7,000 nucleotides of DNA from Candidatus Vampirococcus lugosii (GTDB lineage Bacteria; Patescibacteriota; Gracilibacteria; Absconditabacterales; Absconditicoccaceae). How positions within the stretch are numbered: the stretch's first letter is position 1; each line of letters begins with the position of its first letter. The notes beneath the pieces were generated by a model, which did not search any database, was not told where the DNA came from, and worked only from the letters and a program-made list of their open reading frames with translations. Both the position numbers and the translations under genes were made by a program. Shown here one piece after another: positions 1 to 7,000 of this stretch. The DNA lies in NCBI RefSeq assembly GCF_018420025.1, contig NZ_JAEDAM010000064.1, positions 1-7,000 of the forward strand, in the 5' to 3' direction.

Positions 1-977
1 CCCATTCATGAATCTCTCCACGGCAATATAGCTTCCAAATATTTACTATTTTTATCAATCATTTTTTCCAAATCAACTTGAAGAGTTTGTCATAATCAAT
101 GACAAGTTTCACAAGCTCATTCTTGTCTATTTGGCGAAAAATGTTGAGTAGTAAAATCTGGATATATAATATCACAATCAGGACAAAAATTTTTATCAGT
201 ATACCAAGTAATATTTCAATTTTGATATATTCATACTTTATTTTTATTTAAAAGAATTTTTACTATTCATTCTTTAAGTCTTGATAAATTTTTATCTTCA
301 AGACTAATACGATCATAAATTCAATAAACTTTGATTGGAAAATTTCATTTTGGAATTTTGGGATCTTCAAGATAAAAATATTCTATACATTCAAAATTAT
401 CAAGTTGAATTATAATTCTAATACTTCATTTACCAGCATCAACTTGTTTTCTATTTTTTCTAGTAAATTTCAATAAATCATTTTCTTCTTTAAAATCTCA
501 TATATACTGTAAAATATATATTTTTTCTCATTCAAATTTTTCAATTATTTGTTTATAAATATTATCAGTAGTTTGTGCTTTAATTTCTTTATTACATGAA
601 TAACAATATATATCACCAAGTTTAGCAAACAAAAGTCTTAAATAATCATCAACTTCAGTCATAGTTCATACAGTACTTCTACTATTTCCAACTTTTTTAT
701 TTTGTTCAATTGCTATTGCTGGAGAAAATCACTGACAATAATCAACATCAGGTCTTTCTCATAAATTAAAAAATTGTCTTAAATAACTAGATAAAGATTC
801 TATATATCTAAATTGTCATTCTTTGTAAATAGTATTGAAAGCAAGTGTAGATTTACCTGATCCACTAACTCCTGTAATTGTAATTAATTTATTTTTTGGT
901 AAAGTAATATCAATATTATTTAAATTATTTGTTCTTGCTCATTTGATAATCAATTTTGAAAAATCATTATTTTCCAT
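1..977 (-). CDS. uvrA: Excinuclease ABC subunit A (UvrA), N-terminal ~325 codons; the gene continues past the left edge of the window
   Basis: ATG at 977..975, with an in-frame TAA eight codons upstream. The frame stays open to position 1 when TGA is sense (17 in-frame TGA by hand count, no TAA/TAG). The translation [120 protein letters not shown] tracks the E. coli UvrA N-terminus motif by motif. Walker [10 protein letters not shown] lies at 846-872, and the zinc-module Cys pairs are present. Confidence 0.92.
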
Positions 978-1220
978 ATACAGAAATATTTTATATATTA
1001 TAAATAAACTATATTTATATACTTTTATATCAAAATTTCAATAGTATATAAAACTAATCTATAGCAAACCATTTCAAATATCCCACCAAATAATAAAATT
1101 TAATAAAAAATACACAAAAAATCACTTGAAAAAGATAAAAAAAATAATATAATTTAATTATTCAAAATTAATTAATAATTAATATTTAATCTTGAAAATT
1201 ATGAAAAAATGAGAAAATTT

Positions 1221-1245
1221 AATTGTGAATTGTGAATTGTGAATT
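1221..1245. repeat. Tandem heptanucleotide repeat (AATTGTG) x3 plus a partial fourth unit (AATT), in the uvrA/pilin divergent intergenic region
   Basis: Direct reading gives aattgtg aattgtg aattgtg aatt. It lies about 120-145 nt upstream of the pilin ATG (1366) and about 245 nt upstream of the uvrA ATG (977, opposite strand). Confidence 0.75.
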
Positions 1246-1258
1246 AGATAATTTATCT
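1246..1258. promoter_or_regulatory. 13-bp palindrome AGATAA-T-TTATCT directly abutting the heptamer repeat; candidate protein-binding site
   Basis: agataa (1246-1251) is the exact reverse complement of ttatct (1253-1258), with a 1-nt centre. The function is inferred only. Palindromes of A/T-rich hexamers are not rare at this base composition. Confidence 0.25.
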
Positions 1259-1315
1259 ATAAATAATTTTTGAGTTAATAAAAAAATATGATAGATTTTT
1301 TCTATTGTGTTTTTT

Positions 1316-1339
1316 TATTGATTTAAGAAAAAATCAATA
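1316..1339. promoter_or_regulatory. 9-bp inverted repeat TATTGATTT-N6-AAATCAATA just upstream of the pilin start; candidate operator or RNA hairpin
   Basis: tattgattt (1316-1324) and aaatcaata (1331-1339) are exact reverse complements separated by aagaaa. The repeat ends 27 nt before the ATG at 1366. A TATAAT hexamer follows at 1348-1353, but I found no well-spaced -35 for it. Confidence 0.3.
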
Positions 1340-1365
1340 TATTTTAATATAATAAATAATTAGAT

Positions 1366-2631
1366 ATGAAAAAAAACAATAAATGATTTACATTAGTAGA
1401 AGTTGTGATAACAGTTTGAATTATCGCAATATTGGCGGTAGTAGGATGAATTAGTATTAGTATTTGGATAAGTAAAGCAAGGGATGCACAAGTGGTAAAC
1501 AATGTGCAAACTATAGCATGAGGACTTGAAAGCTATCATATGAAAAATTTTGAATTTCCTGTACCAGATGGTAATATTTTGCCTGATGATCATAAAAAAC
1601 GGGAACAATGAATAATATGATCTTGAGTGATCAAAAAATTATCAAGTTTTATTAATGTAAAAAATTTATCAAATTCTAATAAATATATTTATAGTACTTA
1701 TCAAATTTACGATCATTATCAAGTAATATGACTGTTGGAAAATGATGTTCAAATACAGGCATATGAATATATTATAGATAAAGCACATGCAAATACGGAT
1801 AAAATTGTTGAGCTATGAGATAAATGATATTATTCAAAATGAACCGTTGAAAATATTCCTATGATAATAAATGAAAATAATAAAACTTTAGTACTTGAAT
1901 GAAATGATTGAACTGATTGATGAACTACTTGAAATTATTCTGCTATAAATAATGATTGAACAAATATTTTGAATGGTAATCCTAATTTTAAATGAGTTAG
2001 TGATTTAACTCAAATATCAAAAAATACAAGTGAATATATAGAAAAAGGTGATAATGCAATTATAGAAATTGAAGAAGGTATATATCAATCTATTGATTGA
2101 AAATTTATTAAAATCACAGATTCAAGTACAGATAACGATCTATGATATACAATCATAACTTATAATCCAAGTAATATATCATGAGAACCTGATTTTAGTG
2201 CTTGAAAAAATTCTTTTAATATAAATTGATCAGATCCAAAAATGGAATGGTGATGTAATTGAAAAAAAGTTAGTGATAATGGAAGTGATGGTAAAATAAA
2301 AACTGAAGAAATAGTAAATTTTCACGATGATAATAATAATTTTAGTTGATATAATTATACTTCTTATACAGGAGATTATTCAGATATATGATGTAACTCA
2401 GGCAATGATTGAAATGTAGGAGCTATATTTTGTAACAATTTAGTTTTTAATTGACATAATAATTGGTATTTGCCGTCAAGTAGTGAGTTAAATATAATTA
2501 AAAAACAAAACCTTTTAATTGAAAATCGCTACTTTTCTGCTTCCGAATATTGAAATAATTGAGCTTGGACAAATAACAGTGCTCATTCTAAAAATTATGA
2601 TCGTTATATCCGCTGTATTCGTAGAGAATAA
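1366..2631 (+). CDS. Modular type IV pilin / pseudopilin-like protein (421 aa): prepilin N-terminal cleavage/methylation signal, Gly/Asn/Asp-rich middle region, and DUF1566 (Lcl C-terminal / FISUMP-like) C-terminal module
   Basis: I checked the frame codon by codon from ATG 1366 to TAA 2629-2631. There is no TAA/TAG, and 31 in-frame TGA by hand count. The N-terminus MKKNNK-G-FTLVEVVITVGIIAILAVVGGISISIWISKARDAQ is the class III signal, with Gly at -1 (TGA 1384-1386), Phe at +1, Glu at +5 (1399-1401) and a hydrophobic alpha-1 helix. The C-terminus ..AIFCNNLVFNGHNNWYLPSSSELNIIKKQ..YFSASEY..AWTNN..YIRCIRRE matches the DUF1566 pattern C-x-n-l-x-x-G-x-x-x-W-R/Y-LP-x-x-x-EL ... Y-W/x-S ... vRCvR. 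Four Cys in the distal third could form two disulfides. Confidence 0.82.
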
Positions 2632-2651
2632 ATTTTAAAACTCAAGCAAAC

Positions 2652-2697
2652 AAAAAAAGACACTAGTTTAATAAACTTAAAAACCGTGTCTTTTTTT
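2652..2697. terminator. Candidate bidirectional intrinsic terminator between the convergent pilin and CPBP genes
   Basis: AAAAAAAGACAC (2652-2663) pairs with GTGTCTTTTTTT (2686-2697), giving an A-tract/T-tract-flanked stem that can act on both strands. The weaknesses are a GC core of only 5 bp and a long 22-nt loop. Confidence 0.4.
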
Positions 2698-2730
2698 GTT
2701 TTATATAAAAAACCAAATAAAATATATTAC

Positions 2731-3399
2731 TTAAAAATAAAACATTTTAATTCATATCAAAATGATAGCAATATCAGCAAAAACATGAACAATATAACCA
2801 TTAATTATAGTTTCATTTTTTTCATTAACATATGAAAATATTAAACCACCTATGATAAGTCATATTAATGCCAATAAAAAATTATACCAAGCAAACCATG
2901 TAGCAAATATTCCAACATGATAAATTGAAAACAAAAATGAATTAAAAAAATATTTTCAAAATCTATTTTTTACAGTATGATAGAACACAAAGCCTCTAAA
3001 GAAAAATTCTTCAAAAAAAGCATTAAAAAATGTAATATATATCGCAACAAATGGAAAAATCATTTTATTGACTCATACATTATTTTCTAATTCTTCAGCT
3101 ATGAAACCTAAATCTATTGTATTACTCAATATTACATATGTAATAATAATAGTTACTAATACTAAAATAGATAAAATCCAAGTAAGTCATCTTAAATTAT
3201 TTTTTTTAATATTTATCAAAGATAAAGTTCTTTCTTTACCCAATATAATTATTGGTATTACCAAAAACAATAATATTTTAAATAATATTTTATATAATAT
3301 AAAAACATTCAAAATTTGTTCTAATACATACAAAACTCCTACTGCAAACAATATATATAGTATTAAAATAATTTTATTATTATATATTCTATCTTCCAT
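2731..3399 (-). CDS. CPBP family (CAAX protease / Abi, Rce1-like) glutamic-type intramembrane metalloprotease, 222 aa
   Basis: ATG at 3399..3397 and TAA at 2733..2731, with 5 in-frame TGA; walked codon by codon. The protein is polytopic and hydrophobic. It carries the three CPBP signature motifs: EEFFFRG (2992-3012, EExxxR), FSIYH (His at 2917-2919, FxxxH) and HVFAD (2773-2787, HxxxD/N). Confidence 0.82.
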
Positions 3400-3448
3400 T
3401 ATTGAATTTATTTAATTTAATAAAATTTATAATTTTTATTATATATTC

Positions 3449-3493
3449 AAAAAAATTATGAAATAAAGAAAAAAAATAACTTTATTTCATAAT
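3449..3493 (-). terminator. Candidate rho-independent terminator of the TelA-SPFH-flotillin operon
   Basis: There is a perfect 14-bp inverted repeat: attatgaaataaag (3455-3468) and ctttatttcataat (3480-3493), with an 11-nt loop. Read on the minus strand, the hairpin is followed at once by TTTTTT (complement of 3449-3454). It begins 24 nt after the flotillin stop. The stem is A/T-rich, with only 2 G:C pairs. Confidence 0.5.
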
Positions 3494-3516
3494 CATTAAA
3501 TTAATTATATATTTTT

Positions 3517-4959
3517 TTATACAGACTCTTCTTGTTTATCATTTATTTGTTTAAAATTATTTACTATATTATTAAATTTTTCTTCTCATACTGTTTTTTT
3601 AAATGTTTCAACCATAGCTCAAATATTAGCTCATCAATTTGAAGAAAACAAATCCATAAAACTATTTATTCAACTAGTTCAATTATCACCAGTAGATACA
3701 ATCTTTATATCTGCATTATTTAATGCACGAGCTTTTTCAAGATCTACAACTTGTGATATATCAGCTTCAAGCTGTTTAATCATAAAGTTAAGAGCTTCAG
3801 GTTTAAATTTATTCAAAGCTTCTGCCATTTCTTCTTTATTTCTAGCTTCAGCTGTTCATATATAATTAACTTCTCTTGCTTTAGCTTCAGCAAGTGATTG
3901 TATTCTTTTTGCTTCTGCTTCAGCCAATGATTCAATTTTTAATCTTTCAGCTTCTGCATTTGTTTCAGTAATATATTTTTCAGATTCAACTTCTATTTTT
4001 CTTCTATCTCTTATTTCTTCAGCCTTTATTATTTCTGTTCTCTTACTTATTTCTGCATTTCTTTCTTCTTCAAGTTGTTCTATCATCAATTCTTTTTCTC
4101 TAGTAGATTTTTGAGCTTCAAACATTTTTTGTCTTGAAATTTCTTTTTTTAAGTTCAATTCTTCTTCTTTTTCAATTTCAAAATTTTCTGTTACTCTTTC
4201 ATTTTCTAATTTCTTTAATCAAGACTCTCTTTGTGAATCATATTCAACAATATCAGCTTTTGATTTAGCTTCAGCCGCTCTAGCTCTAGCTTCCGATTCT
4301 TTATTTTCTTTTTCAATAATAGTTCTTTTTTGATTTTCCGAAACTTCAATTTGAGATTCAGATTCAATTTCAGATCTTTTTTTCTGCATAATATTACTTA
4401 TTACTCTACTTTCTCAAGTTTCAGGATCTCTAATATCCATAAATTCTACATTTTTTAAATCAACTCACCAACTTACAACAGAGTCCAAAACTTCTTTATA
4501 GAATTCTTCTTTTATTTCAACTCTAGATTCCATTATTTCTATAATATCTTTTGATGCAAGAGTTTTTCTTATTACTCATTTTAAAGTTTCATTTAAATGT
4601 TCTTTAAGTTCTTCTATATGAAATATTTTTTGTGCTGCAATTTCAGGTTCTTTTATTACAAAAAATGCAGTAACATCTACTATAAAAGGAACTTTTCATG
4701 AATCATATGCTTTATATTGATCAACTTTTATTGTAAAGATACTAATAGGAAGTTTTTGAACTTCTACTCATAAAGCAGGAACCCAAGATGGCCAATCTAT
4801 ATATACATTTCATGCATCAAATCATCTACCATATGCTTTTGATGTTTTTTTTCATTGTGCTATATGAACTTCATTTGTAGGAACTACTTTTCTTAAATTA
4901 GACAATATTACAATAAACACAATAAATGCAACTAAACCACCAACTCAAAAAATAGTCAT
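3517..4959 (-). CDS. floT: Flotillin-family SPFH/Band-7 protein (FloT/YqiK-like), 480 aa: N-terminal TM, SPFH domain, long Glu/Ala/Lys coiled coil, flotillin C-terminal region
   Basis: ATG at 4959..4957 and TAA at 3519..3517. I checked every codon and found 17 in-frame TGA and no TAA/TAG. The N-terminal TM is TIFGVGGLVAFIVFIVILSNL, followed by LRKVVPTNEVHIAQG...VSWGVDLKNVEFMDIRDP (SPFH core). The EA-rich coiled coil ..ETNAEAERLKIESLAEAEAKRIQSLAEAKAREV.. and the tail ..ALNKFKPEALNFMIKQL..IKIVSTGDNGTSG.. resemble the B. subtilis FloT C-terminus (..GLAEAEAKEKIAAAFEQYG..ITVVDTGGSG..). ORF-track fragment 3856..4158 is an internal piece of this gene. Confidence 0.88.
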
Positions 4960-5003
4960 TTTTAATACTATTTAATAATTAAATTTATTTATTATTTATC
5001 TTT

Positions 5004-5570
5004 TTAAGATAAATTAATATCTATTAATTCTAACTTTTTAAGCTCAACTCAAACATTTTTGATAGAAGATAAGATTTCTTTATAAAGTTTTTCTTTTATA
5101 TCAAGTTTAAAATTACTTTTTTCAAAGAAATCTGTAATATCTACTTTCAAAATACTTTTTGATGAAAAAACTTTTTGTAATATTAATTCTATCATTCTCT
5201 GCAAATACTTTTCTAACTCATTCATATCAAAAGATATATTTGATATAAGTTCAATATCTTTTACAACAAAATATACATTAAGATCTATTATTAGATTTAC
5301 TTTTAGTGAATCATATGTAGTATATTTTTTAAATACTATTGTAAATACATCAAGATTAAATTTAGCAACTTCTATTCATAAAAAAGGAATCCAACCTGGC
5401 CATTCCAAATAAGTATCTCAATGAATAAGTCATTTTCAATAATATTTAAATCCATATCTATATTGTATTAAATGGGCTTCATTTGCAGGAACTACTCTTC
5501 TCAAATTATACAATATCAATACATATGGTAACACAAAAAATAAAACAAAAAGTATAATAATATTAATCAT
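5004..5570 (-). CDS. Short single-TM SPFH-domain protein (188 aa); a paralog of the N-terminal third of the downstream flotillin that lacks the coiled-coil/flotillin tail
   Basis: ATG at 5570..5568 and TAA at 5006..5004, with 5 in-frame TGA; every codon checked. MINIIILFVLFFVLPYVLILYNLRRVVPANEAHLIQ..YYGKGLIHGDTYLEWPGWIPFLGIEV..FTIV..YTTYDS.KV..IIDL..YFVVKD...KEKLYKEILSSIKNVGVELKKLELIDINLS aligns colinearly with flotillin residues ~20-200 (LRKVVPTNEVHIAQ..AYGRGFDAGNVYIDWPSWVPALGVEV..FTIK..YKAYDS.KV..IVDV..FFVIKE...KEEFYKEVLDSVVSWGVDLKNVEFMDIRDP). Confidence 0.75.
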
Positions 5571-5572
5571 TT

Positions 5573-6751
5573 TTATTGTTTTTTATCTTCTTCTTTATCC
5601 ATAATTTCAACTAATTCTTTTTCTTGAGATTCTTCATCTGACAAAGTATTTTTAAGTTCATTTGCATCATCTTTATTCATAACTTTTATATCATCTAATT
5701 TAGCTCTAGCCTCTCCAAATAACTTTCTTTCTTCTTTAGCTTCTCTTGCAACTTGTTCTCTAAAATTTTCTATTTCATCAAAATGATTTTTTAATTTAGT
5801 AACATTTTCCATAAATACTGTTGTAGAAACTACTGGTTTAGATGCAACTTCTTCAGCTTTTTTACTTCATTCTATTGCTTTATCAGTAAGATCACTTGAC
5901 ATTTTATCTATTGTACTACCCATCACATCCATAGCTTTCATACTTGCATCTATAGATTTTTGACTAGAAGTTTCTATTATTGCAGTAGATAAAAGTGTTT
6001 TAAAAATTGGTCTTGATGAATTCATAGATAAAGCAAGTTTAGTAGCACTATCAAGTCTCATTTCTAATCTCTTTTTTGCCATTTCCAAATTACCGATCAA
6101 AACTACTATATTTGTCAAAAAGAACTCAACATTTTGTTTAAACATTGATAATTTTCTTTTTTCATCTTCATTTTCTTCATTATCAATTCTTCCTTGAAGT
6201 TCATCAACTTTTTTTCATATATAATCTTTGTAAGAAACTATAGAACCTAAATTCTCTTCTACACCATCCAAAAAATTATTTTGCATATCTATAGAAGTAT
6301 TTATTGAATAATATGCTTGATCAAATCATGAAAATATTGTTTCAATTTTTCATTCTACAGTTTTCATATTGAAACTCATATCATCTTTAGCATTATCAAT
6401 TTTAGTCACTACAGATCATATTCATGGTATAGATTTCATAAATTTCATAAAACTTCAATCATTATCTATAATATCTCTATAAACTCATTGAACTTCTCAA
6501 TTCATTTTTTCTAATTCATCAGAAACAGACATAATAGGATCACCATCTATTACTTTGGCAGTTTTGGAAACAATATCATCTATTGGAGCTGTAATTCTTT
6601 CTCATATACTTCTAAAATTCTTTGCTTCTTCAAAAGCTTTTTGAATTTCTTTTGTTTCTTCTTCTGACAATTCAATTTGCTTTATTTCTGTGTTTGCCAA
6701 ATTATTAGATAAATTATTATTTTGAATATTATCTTTAACATTATTTTCCAT
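5573..6751 (-). CDS. telA: TelA/YaaN/KlaA-family protein (toxic anion resistance protein family), 392 aa
   Basis: ATG at 6751..6749, with an in-frame TAA three codons upstream. TAA at 5575..5573, and 10 in-frame TGA; walked codon by codon. ORF-track fragments 5573..5812 and 5867..6145 are in the same frame and are joined through TGA 5867-5869. The protein is all-helical and acidic. Its layout resembles B. subtilis YaaN/TelA as recalled: a central ..SIDMQNNFLDGVEENLGSIVSYKDYIGKKVDELQ.. (compare ..NALISDNKLLEQLYEKNKEYF..YIAAGELKLEEL..), then ..LEMRLDSATKLALSMNSSRPIFKTLLSTAIIETSSQKSIDA.., then a C-terminal charged helix. This is a family-level call made without an HMM. Confidence 0.68.
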
Positions 6752-6787
6752 GCTTTTTTAATTTTTTTATAATATAAATATAGATAT

Positions 6788-6815
6788 ATTATATTACTTT
6801 TTTTTAAAAAATCAA
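6788..6815 (-). promoter_or_regulatory. Candidate sigma-70-type promoter of the TelA-SPFH-flotillin operon
   Basis: On the minus strand: TTGATT (6815..6810), a 16-nt spacer (ttttaaaaaaaagtaa), then TATAAT (6793..6788). The -10 ends 36 nt upstream of the ATG at 6751. Such hexamers arise easily by chance in DNA this AT-rich. Confidence 0.3.
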
Positions 6816-6918
6816 ATTAATATGGATATTTTTTCATTTTTGGGATAAAAAATTTAAAGAAAGGACAGATTTTAATTATTATTAGAGTACTTTTAAATCA
6901 ATAAAAAAATGTCCATAA

Positions 6919-6963
6919 ATTACTGCAATATCTTGTCTGAAATTACTAACCTTCTGCAGTAAT
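6919..6963. repeat. 9-bp inverted repeat ATTACTGCA-N27-TGCAGTAAT, with a third direct copy of AAATTACT in the spacer
   Basis: attactgca (6919-6927) and tgcagtaat (6955-6963) are exact reverse complements. aaattact occurs at 6917-6924 and again at 6940-6947. The repeat lies 170-210 nt upstream of the telA-like start. All three minus-strand frames hit a stop within the last ~12 nt of the window, so an upstream minus-strand gene could end near 6990. In that case this could be its terminator. Confidence 0.4.
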
Positions 6964-7000
6964 AAAGATAAAAAAAGCTTGAAAAGTTAATTAAGAACTA

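Follow-up and report, generated by a model that had tools for sequence, protein, structure and literature searches.

Background

TelA has been described as a 'tellurite resistance' determinant since the early 1990s, with a biochemical function that is still unsettled (PMC12791056, PMC7824862). The protein has been proposed to form sub-membrane structures, and resistance to phages and colicins has been associated with Ter/TelA systems (PMC7824862). A genetic interaction between telA and xpaC was reported in Enterococcus faecium, where deletion of xpaC changes phospholipid microdomains and daptomycin binding only if telA is intact (PMC6811118), and a bacteriocin that acts on membranes induces the telA/xpaC pair in Listeria (PMC12791056). 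The subject of the present work is a set of three genes from Candidatus Vampirococcus lugosii, located in a stretch of 7,000 nucleotides (contig NZ_JAEDAM010000064.1, positions 1 to 7,000) referred to as the window. Gene 1 encodes a very divergent relative of TelA, gene 2 a short SPFH protein and gene 3 a flotillin.

Flotillins of known structure are large cage-like oligomers at the membrane, and the coiled-coil region closes the cage in solved flotillin and HflK/C structures. SPFH genes have patchy and variable genomic contexts (PMC13086221). The SPFH protein YdjI tethers PspA to the membrane in Bacillus subtilis (PMC8581546), and comparative genomics has connected PspA with Band-7/flotillin, AAA+ and TPM partners (PMC11237479). 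The Vampirococcus genome paper treats the flotillin studied here only as a membrane-proteome protein with a possible part in host recognition (PMC8080830). In agreement with an earlier reading of the window from its letters alone (the sequence-only reading), which knew of no described pairing of a TelA-family gene with SPFH genes, no paper linking TelA with flotillin or SPFH was found in a literature search. None of these proteins is mentioned in a Gracilibacteria metaproteogenomics paper.

Results and Discussion

Gene 1 belongs to the TelA superfamily

Gene 1 (5573..6751, minus strand) is an intact open reading frame with 10 UGA-glycine codons, encoding a soluble, all-alpha protein of 392 amino acids that is identical to a known Candidatus Vampirococcus lugosii protein. 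The sequence-only reading had placed it in the TelA family. Checked directly with the Pfam model this assignment failed, as TelA (PF05816, gathering threshold 30 bits) gave no match to the gene 1 protein at E<=1. A relationship to TelA was recovered by profile-profile comparison and a fold search, and gene 1 was found to encode a genuine but very divergent TelA-superfamily member, belonging to a distinct family and related to TelA at the superfamily level only.

Traces of the relationship were already present in the Pfam scans of diverse family members, where TelA was the most recurrent sub-threshold match. Five of 25 members matched, with 20.3, 18.9, 15.9, 15.1 and 11.5 bits (best E 3e-4). 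The matches were broadly collinear, and the alignment of one member covered profile positions 13-327 of 332. Conventional searches did not extend this. A profile of close relatives run against 1.84 billion representative proteins collected 79 sequences only and never reached TelA. Bridging searches towards TelA through protein P0131 or through a short subfamily gave two matches each, tblastn of P0131 against plasmids gave no match, and searches of PDB sequences with the single sequence and with both family profiles (A1 and A2) returned nothing above chance.

Nine genuine TelA sequences were aligned for comparison with hhalign: phage FBKp34 gp135, IncP KlaB, B. subtilis YaaN, and plasmid TelA genes from Clostridium, Pseudomonas, Aeromonas, Comamonas, Acinetobacter and Providencia. 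The diverse family profile A2 matched this alignment (A5) with a probability of 94.9%, an E-value of 4.3e-8 and a score of 67.4 over 314 collinear columns, pairing window residues 28-352 with TelA columns 31-361 of 383. The diverse profile was needed for this result; the low-diversity profile A1 reached only 2%. A control comparison of flotillin with TelA gave 5.6%. The real score was well separated from all nulls, which were 17-20 for reversed profiles, at most 16 for column shuffles and at most 32 for block shuffles. Within the alignment the family sequence KSIPGIG is paired with the S..P.IG motif of TelA, and the block-shuffle nulls recover the K.P.IG motif. In a Foldseek search of the viral models of BFVD with the second AlphaFold2 model (pLDDT 66), all five matches at E<=1e-3 were phage TelA/tellurite-resistance proteins, and the sixth-ranked match was annotated 'TelA-like'. 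The AlphaFold2 models consisted of helices throughout, and residues 129-260 formed a hairpin modelled with confidence. Against the PDB neither of the two models gave a match at E<=1e-3, and the resemblances listed were of a generic helical-bundle kind (ClyA/Nhe/Hbl, BAR domains and Vipp1).

The gene 1 family and TelA/KlaB/YaaN (PF05816) are alike in length (about 360-390 amino acids), in their all-helical fold and in the S/K..P.IG motif. They differ in their surroundings, since the gene 1 locus has no klaA, telB/klaC, xpaC or ter neighbours. The classical TelA genes collected in this work came from plasmids and phages, whereas a TelA-like gene of the present family was kept in every code-25 genome sampled (code 25 reads UGA as glycine). 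Identity across the code-25 Gracilibacteria/Absconditabacteria sampled was 57-72%, and more than 100 columns were invariant across 24 sequences. The sequence-only reading had argued that retention in a streamlined genome indicates importance. This argument holds for the TelA-like gene and does not carry over to the SPFH genes; as the genomes are strongly reduced, the genes retained in them probably matter.

The most invariant stretch of the TelA-like family comprises residues 247-293 (window 5873-6013, minus strand), RPIFKTLLSTAIIETSSQK... AlphaFold2 confidence was mostly low over these residues, with a predicted local distance difference test score (pLDDT) of 30-50 from about residues 266-288 onward in both models. 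The stretch may serve to bind a partner or the membrane, or may act as a switch.

The gene 1 protein is named inconsistently in the databases, as hypothetical by NCBI and as 'Toxic anion resistance protein' in its UniRef cluster. A superfamily can now be assigned to this Gracilibacteria/Absconditabacteria protein. Loci L087 and L088 were considered as a separate strain and rejected, being 100% identical under code 25 and from the same organism; protein P0002, a separate database entry for the gene 1 protein, shows '97%' identity because UGA was translated as Trp by one pipeline. KlaA, encoded upstream of telA/klaB on IncP-type plasmids, was found to be a shorter TelA paralogue (hhalign 97.7% versus the TelA alignment; klaA at 2102-2875 of L103, with L104-L106 and L108 as further loci). 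This explains why PGAP names KlaA a toxic anion resistance protein in some such plasmids.

Gene 3 encodes a flotillin

Gene 3 (3517..4959, minus strand) encodes a protein of 480 amino acids. A transmembrane (TM) segment at the N-terminus is followed by an SPFH domain, a long coiled coil rich in Glu and Ala, and finally a C-terminal region, an architecture like that of eukaryotic flotillin-1/2 and FloT/YuaG. As proposed in the sequence-only reading, genes 2 and 3 both encode SPFH proteins. The Pfam Band_7 model (PF01145, cutoff 23.6 bits) scored 54.8 bits with the gene 3 protein and 30.6 bits with the 188-residue protein of gene 2. The further proposal that gene 3 is a full-length flotillin was supported by a phmmer match of residues 59-431 to human flotillin-2 (9bq2_A, E 2.5e-13; flotillin-1, E 4e-10), and was not supported by the Pfam Flot model, which gave 18.9 bits, under its 27-bit cutoff. 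With the NCBIfam FloT equivalog model NF058507 the protein scored 56.8 bits against a cutoff of 700 bits. Gene 3 is thus a genuine flotillin, flotillin-like but not a FloT orthologue. Orthologues with 57-71% identity were found in loci L004, L006, L089 and L091.

FloT/YuaG differs from gene 3 in having an NfeD/YuaF partner, in place of which gene 3 has a TelA-like gene and a shortened SPFH paralogue beside it. The lack of NfeD noted in the sequence-only reading was confirmed, as no NfeD domain was present in the five window proteins scanned or among the precomputed Pfam families of the L004-L006 genes. A pair of SPFH paralogues without NfeD is not new in itself, since such operons are known (HflK/HflC and PaFlo5-6-7 of Pseudomonas aeruginosa; PMC13086221). 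These known tandem paralogues differ from the present pair, in which one paralogue is lineage-specific and consists of the SPFH domain without a coiled coil.

Conservation of the gene neighbourhood

The surroundings of the TelA-like gene were compared in 77 non-redundant loci, drawn from 80 species-representative genomes and from contigs found by exact protein look-up. In 65 informative loci at least 1.5 kb of downstream sequence was available. The first downstream gene belonged to the cluster-1 superfamily in 38 of these 65 loci, and was a flotillin/SPFH gene in three (the window, L004 and L006), so that about 95% of TelA-like loci lack flotillin. A scan of metagenomes from the flotillin side added four loci. 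In one of these (L091) the flotillin gene follows a TelA-like gene, one (L090) was too short, and two (L089 and L092) have flotillin without a TelA-like gene. The 263-amino acid and 187-amino acid products of the upstream genes in L089 and L092 were tested as divergent TelA-like proteins, with a negative result.

A TelA-like gene followed by a flotillin gene was thus found in four independent loci (the window, L004, L006 and L091), with gaps of 2-71 nt and outer flanks that all differ. The sequence-only reading had regarded the three-gene arrangement as a module to be looked for in other bacteria. Adjacency of all three genes was not conserved: the short SPFH gene occurs in this organism only, and flotillin is the next gene in the three loci above and one metagenome locus. 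The three-gene operon is peculiar to this organism, and the TelA-like/flotillin pair recurs as a minority arrangement. The majority arrangement is a TelA-like gene, then a cluster-1 gene, often followed by a gene for an AAA ATPase. The pairing of TelA-like protein and flotillin is real, undescribed and confined to a few lineages.

In a rough neighbour-joining tree the flotillin-linked TelA-like genes were found at two places. The genes of the window, L004 and L006 lie at the base of one clade, the inner members of which (L001, L007, L008) carry cluster 1, and that of L091 lies in a separate clade. Flotillin replaces cluster 1 in the same position. The arrangement of rpoBC followed by a TelA-like gene is common to the closely related genomes of L001, L006 and L008, and the TelA-like protein of L006 is 84% identical to those of L001/L008. 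The gene after it differs, being flotillin in L006 (then cluster 4 and AAA) and cluster 1 in L001 and L008. Judged from gene order and identity, the partner gene appears to have been exchanged in place.

Recurrent partners of the TelA-like gene

Cluster-1 proteins are about 400 amino acids long, with TM hairpins (four TM segments) and a C-terminal coiled coil. A C-terminal helical domain is common to clusters 1, 3, 5, 12 and 27 (hhalign 82-97%), which appear to form one paralogous partner family; representatives of the latter four are found at L083 9432-9974, L034 3220-3999, L079 10656-11327 and L059 7120-8151. Several cluster-1 relatives have a ...LQ[KV].RL..QI..L motif near the C-terminus. 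Comparison of cluster 1 with TelB/KlaC, KlaA and XpaC gave no homology (all below 1.5% with hhalign, no Pfam family).

Downstream sequence of 5 kb or more was available for 54 loci, and 27 of these encode a single-domain AAA ATPase there. Its closest solved relatives are Cdc48/VCP/VAT (E about 1e-74), and it is still present downstream in L006, where flotillin occupies the partner slot. The trio of TelA-like gene, cluster 1 (no Pfam family) and AAA gene is exemplified by L002 6001-9584 and is also seen in L014, L020, L033, L040, L046 and others; no description of it was found in the literature searched. In L082 (4544-5425) and in 10 further loci a gene for a membrane protein with a TPM domain (cluster 6; Pfam TPM_phosphatase, E 1e-22) lies near the TelA-like gene, mostly upstream of it at a distance of one or two genes.

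An uncharacterised protein of about 245 amino acids (cluster 4) follows flotillin in L004 (9029-9781), L006 (8660-9397) and L089 (7589-8323). It is homologous to cluster 22. Cluster 4 is encoded directly after the TelA-like gene in L037 and cluster 22 in L015, L021 and L066; both are missing from the window.

Functional coupling of the TelA-like protein and flotillin

The reading preferred here is an inferred functional coupling in which the TelA-like protein would act as a scaffold and flotillin as an alternative membrane anchor, and we regard the case for it as evenly balanced. The TelA-like protein would form, or regulate, an assembly on the cytoplasmic side of the membrane, aiding upkeep of the membrane or envelope, and would need a membrane-anchored coiled-coil partner encoded beside its own gene. 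In most relatives this partner would be the four-TM/coiled-coil protein of cluster 1, often followed by the Cdc48-like AAA unfoldase as a possible recycling factor for the assembly. The partner slot would be filled by flotillin, as anchor or organiser, in Vampirococcus and a few other lineages, in parallel with the tethering of PspA by YdjI. The short SPFH protein may join or modulate the membrane-proximal ring of the flotillin oligomer; equally, it may be a drifting duplicate.

Such a system would have a parallel in PspA. Like pspA-ydjGHI of B. subtilis, the locus appears to encode a soluble long-helix sub-membrane protein beside an SPFH protein, and the partners in PspA neighbourhoods (AAA ATPase, TPM-domain protein and flotillin; PMC11237479) are of the same kinds as those of the TelA-like family. 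A relative of TelA is thereby tied to kinds of partner that are linked with PspA. Gene 1 differs from PspA/ESCRT-III in being TelA-like, and its fold matches to Vipp1/PspA were weak (E>0.3, TM-score about 0.3). The likeness of the gene 1/flotillin pair to PspA-YdjI would lie in a possible way of working and not in ancestry. The xpaC-telA (yaaN) pair of Firmicutes is also similar, with telA beside a membrane-protein gene and a genetic interaction of the two that bears on phospholipid microdomains and on tolerance to membrane-active antimicrobials (PMC12791056, PMC6811118). It differs in that no XpaC homologue occurs here or in related loci, and in that the partner here is flotillin or cluster 1, encoded downstream and not upstream. 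The TelA literature is in keeping with a role at the membrane, given the proposed sub-membrane structures (PMC7824862), the telA-xpaC interaction (PMC6811118) and the response to a bacteriocin (PMC12791056). The recurrence of the TelA-like/flotillin pair in four loci, with flotillin in the partner slot, also speaks for the coupling.

Several results weigh against the coupling. The AlphaFold2 models of the gene 1 protein were of moderate quality (pLDDT 63-66), and their TM-scores to the phage TelA models were only 0.25-0.44. Flotillin is the downstream neighbour in a small minority of the informative loci (3/65), and two of the six flotillin loci have no TelA-like gene. SPFH contexts are patchy (PMC13086221), which makes adjacency alone weak evidence. 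The idea of an interchangeable anchor is drawn from position and architecture only, cluster 1 being unrelated to TelB/KlaC, KlaA and XpaC.

The same results can be accounted for by history. Flotillin could have been inserted beside a conserved housekeeping TelA-like gene in one or two sub-lineages and be co-transcribed with it, the two proteins acting independently and flotillin serving as a general organiser or as part of the host-contact proteome. The preponderance of TelA-like loci without flotillin, the flotillin loci without a TelA-like gene and the typically unstable contexts of SPFH genes (PMC13086221) all fit this explanation, as does the treatment of flotillin in the genome paper as a membrane-proteome protein with a possible role in host recognition (PMC8080830). 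It fits less well with the fact that the pair has been kept, with short gaps, in four loci with different outer flanks, or with flotillins that are merely 57-71% identical in loci at two positions of the TelA-like tree. Flotillin moreover occupies precisely the position in which the usual membrane partner is encoded, and it is followed by the AAA ATPase in L006. An origin by insertion with independent proteins is considered possible, if rather doubtful.

The Vampirococcus locus is a candidate membrane-maintenance unit, and its three-gene form is a local variant and not a widespread module. The pattern of TelA-like, cluster-1 and Cdc48-like AAA genes across Gracilibacteria is of more interest than the three-gene form. 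The idea can be put in testable form: a TelA-type protein would be a sub-membrane scaffold dependent on a coiled-coil partner anchored in the membrane. Taken to its full extent, it could place the TelA-like family at the centre of an ATP-driven system, as yet undescribed, for remodelling or repair of the membrane on its cytoplasmic face. Such a system would combine the scaffold with an interchangeable anchor (cluster 1 or flotillin) and the Cdc48-like unfoldase as an analogue of PspA/ESCRT-III-Vps4, and Vampirococcus would have the flotillin-anchored variant, possibly adapted to the membrane stress of an epibiotic predator. We consider this larger scheme speculative and, as a whole, unlikely. 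If it is true, the role of TelA proteins in general would be that of membrane scaffolds and not of 'resistance' proteins.

Gene 2 is a partial duplicate of the flotillin gene

Gene 2 (5004..5570, minus strand) encodes a protein of 188 amino acids made up solely of an SPFH domain preceded by an N-terminal TM segment. The protein is 39% identical to flotillin residues 9-176 (178 amino acids, E 9e-44), which confirms the two SPFH proteins as paralogues. It stops at the end of the SPFH domain and is without the coiled-coil/flotillin region. A 23-nt DNA segment, 91% identical between the two genes, is a trace of the duplication. No short SPFH gene was present in the other loci examined from the TelA-like and the flotillin sides. 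Gene 2 is a Vampirococcus-specific partial tandem duplicate of the flotillin gene.

It could be argued that the unit has two components only, the short SPFH gene being a decaying copy with no role of its own, and this would be compatible both with functional coupling and with uncoupled adjacency. Its restriction to this organism, the loss of the whole coiled-coil region and the Band_7 score of just 30.6 bits are as expected of a decaying gene, and by sequence the protein is too diverged to match any solved SPFH structure. The reading frame is intact, however. It starts with an ATG, encodes a TM segment of its own and follows gene 1 across the kind of 2-nt junction that is usual in translational coupling, and the membrane-proximal motifs RRVVPANE and WPGWIPFLGIEV are conserved. 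The 39% identity points to an old duplication, yet the gene has been kept in a reduced genome. Decay of gene 2 is accordingly a tentative explanation that we are inclined to doubt.

Defence and tellurite resistance

The sequence-only reading also proposed a defence-like module, which was not upheld. In such an anti-phage or abortive-infection system the TelA-like protein would be the effector that damages membranes, and an SPFH scaffold would hold or trigger it. The links of Ter/TelA to phage and colicin resistance (PMC7824862) are in line with this, as is a low fold resemblance of the gene 1 protein to the alpha-pore-forming toxins ClyA/Nhe/Hbl (TM-score <0.4, none at E<=1e-3). A single weak PADLOC match of the window protein, to the anti-jumbo-phage effector JukB (E 5e-5), was seen in one of 25 family members and was rejected as a chance match; no other PADLOC model matched, and the two SPFH proteins gave no meaningful PADLOC matches. 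Defence genes are normally patchy and fast-evolving. The TelA-like gene, in contrast, is a highly conserved core gene, and in the loci examined it sits not in a variable island but among genes of a housekeeping kind (rpoBC, uvrA and others for ribosomal proteins or DNA repair). A defence role is regarded as very improbable.

A literal role in toxic-anion (tellurite) resistance, as implied by the UniRef cluster name and by superfamily-level homology to TelA, is scarcely credible, since that name was assigned automatically, none of the classical partners (TelB/KlaC, KlaA, TerB/C/D and XpaC) was detectable in the window or related loci (Pfam, hhalign), and the tellurite phenotype of TelA is generally seen as a side effect of a role in membrane stress (PMC12791056, PMC6811118, PMC7824862).

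Genetic code and operon structure

UGA had to be read as a sense codon (stops TAA and TAG only) for three intact open reading frames to be obtained on the minus strand; with translation table 11 the three genes fragment into short open reading frames. In the UvrA fragment at 3-977 (minus strand) at least eight UGA positions were opposite Gly in Thermotoga UvrA (3pih). Glycine was encoded by UGA versus GGN 10 versus 7 times in gene 1, 5 versus 2 in gene 2 and 17 versus 4 in gene 3, UGA being the commonest Gly codon across the three genes. These alignments and the protein identity with Vampirococcus lugosii bear out the suggestion, made from the sequence alone, of a code-25 genome belonging to the Candidate Phyla Radiation (CPR). 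The genome is that of the code-25 CPR bacterium Candidatus Vampirococcus lugosii (Absconditabacteria), in which UGA encodes Gly.

Under code 25 the tight packing of the genes was found as the sequence-only reading had placed it. At the first junction the TAA of the TelA-like gene (5575-5573) is separated by 2 nt from the SPFH ATG (5570), and at the second the SPFH stop (5006-5004) by 44 nt from the flotillin ATG (4959). The three genes form an apparent operon, a reading based on these gaps, the single strand and a terminator after gene 3 only, and would be co-transcribed. A terminator-like hairpin (3449..3494, minus strand), proposed earlier at 3449-3493, was substantiated by its folding energy. 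The 15-bp AU-rich stem (3494-3454) followed by U7 (to 3449) had an energy of -16.3 kcal/mol, with z = -4.0 versus 200 shuffles. It starts 23 nt past the flotillin stop and was missed by a G+C-based terminator scan of the window. A candidate promoter had been placed upstream at 6788-6815, and the best-scoring site of the minus strand was indeed found there (TTGATT-16 nt-TATAAT, 6788..6815, 10/12 positions), about 37 nt upstream of the TelA-like ATG. In this DNA of 23% GC, 20 such sites were found versus 30.5 expected from shuffles. Because the sites are not enriched, the promoter is plausible and no more, its position being suggestive only.

Other features of the window

No tRNA or Rfam family was found in the window, and it held no meaningful repeats except the trace of the SPFH paralogue duplication. 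The terminator hairpin separates the three genes from a gene on the same strand for a CPBP/Rce1-like intramembrane protease (2731-3399, minus strand; Pfam Rce1-like, E 2e-9), which was not found beside TelA-like or flotillin genes in the other loci examined. A plus-strand gene (1366-2631) encodes a protein of 421 amino acids whose N-terminus has a methylation motif like that of type IV pilins (N_methyl, E 2e-7). This protein has a weakly Lcl_C-like C-terminus, and its gene contains 31 UGA (Gly) codons.

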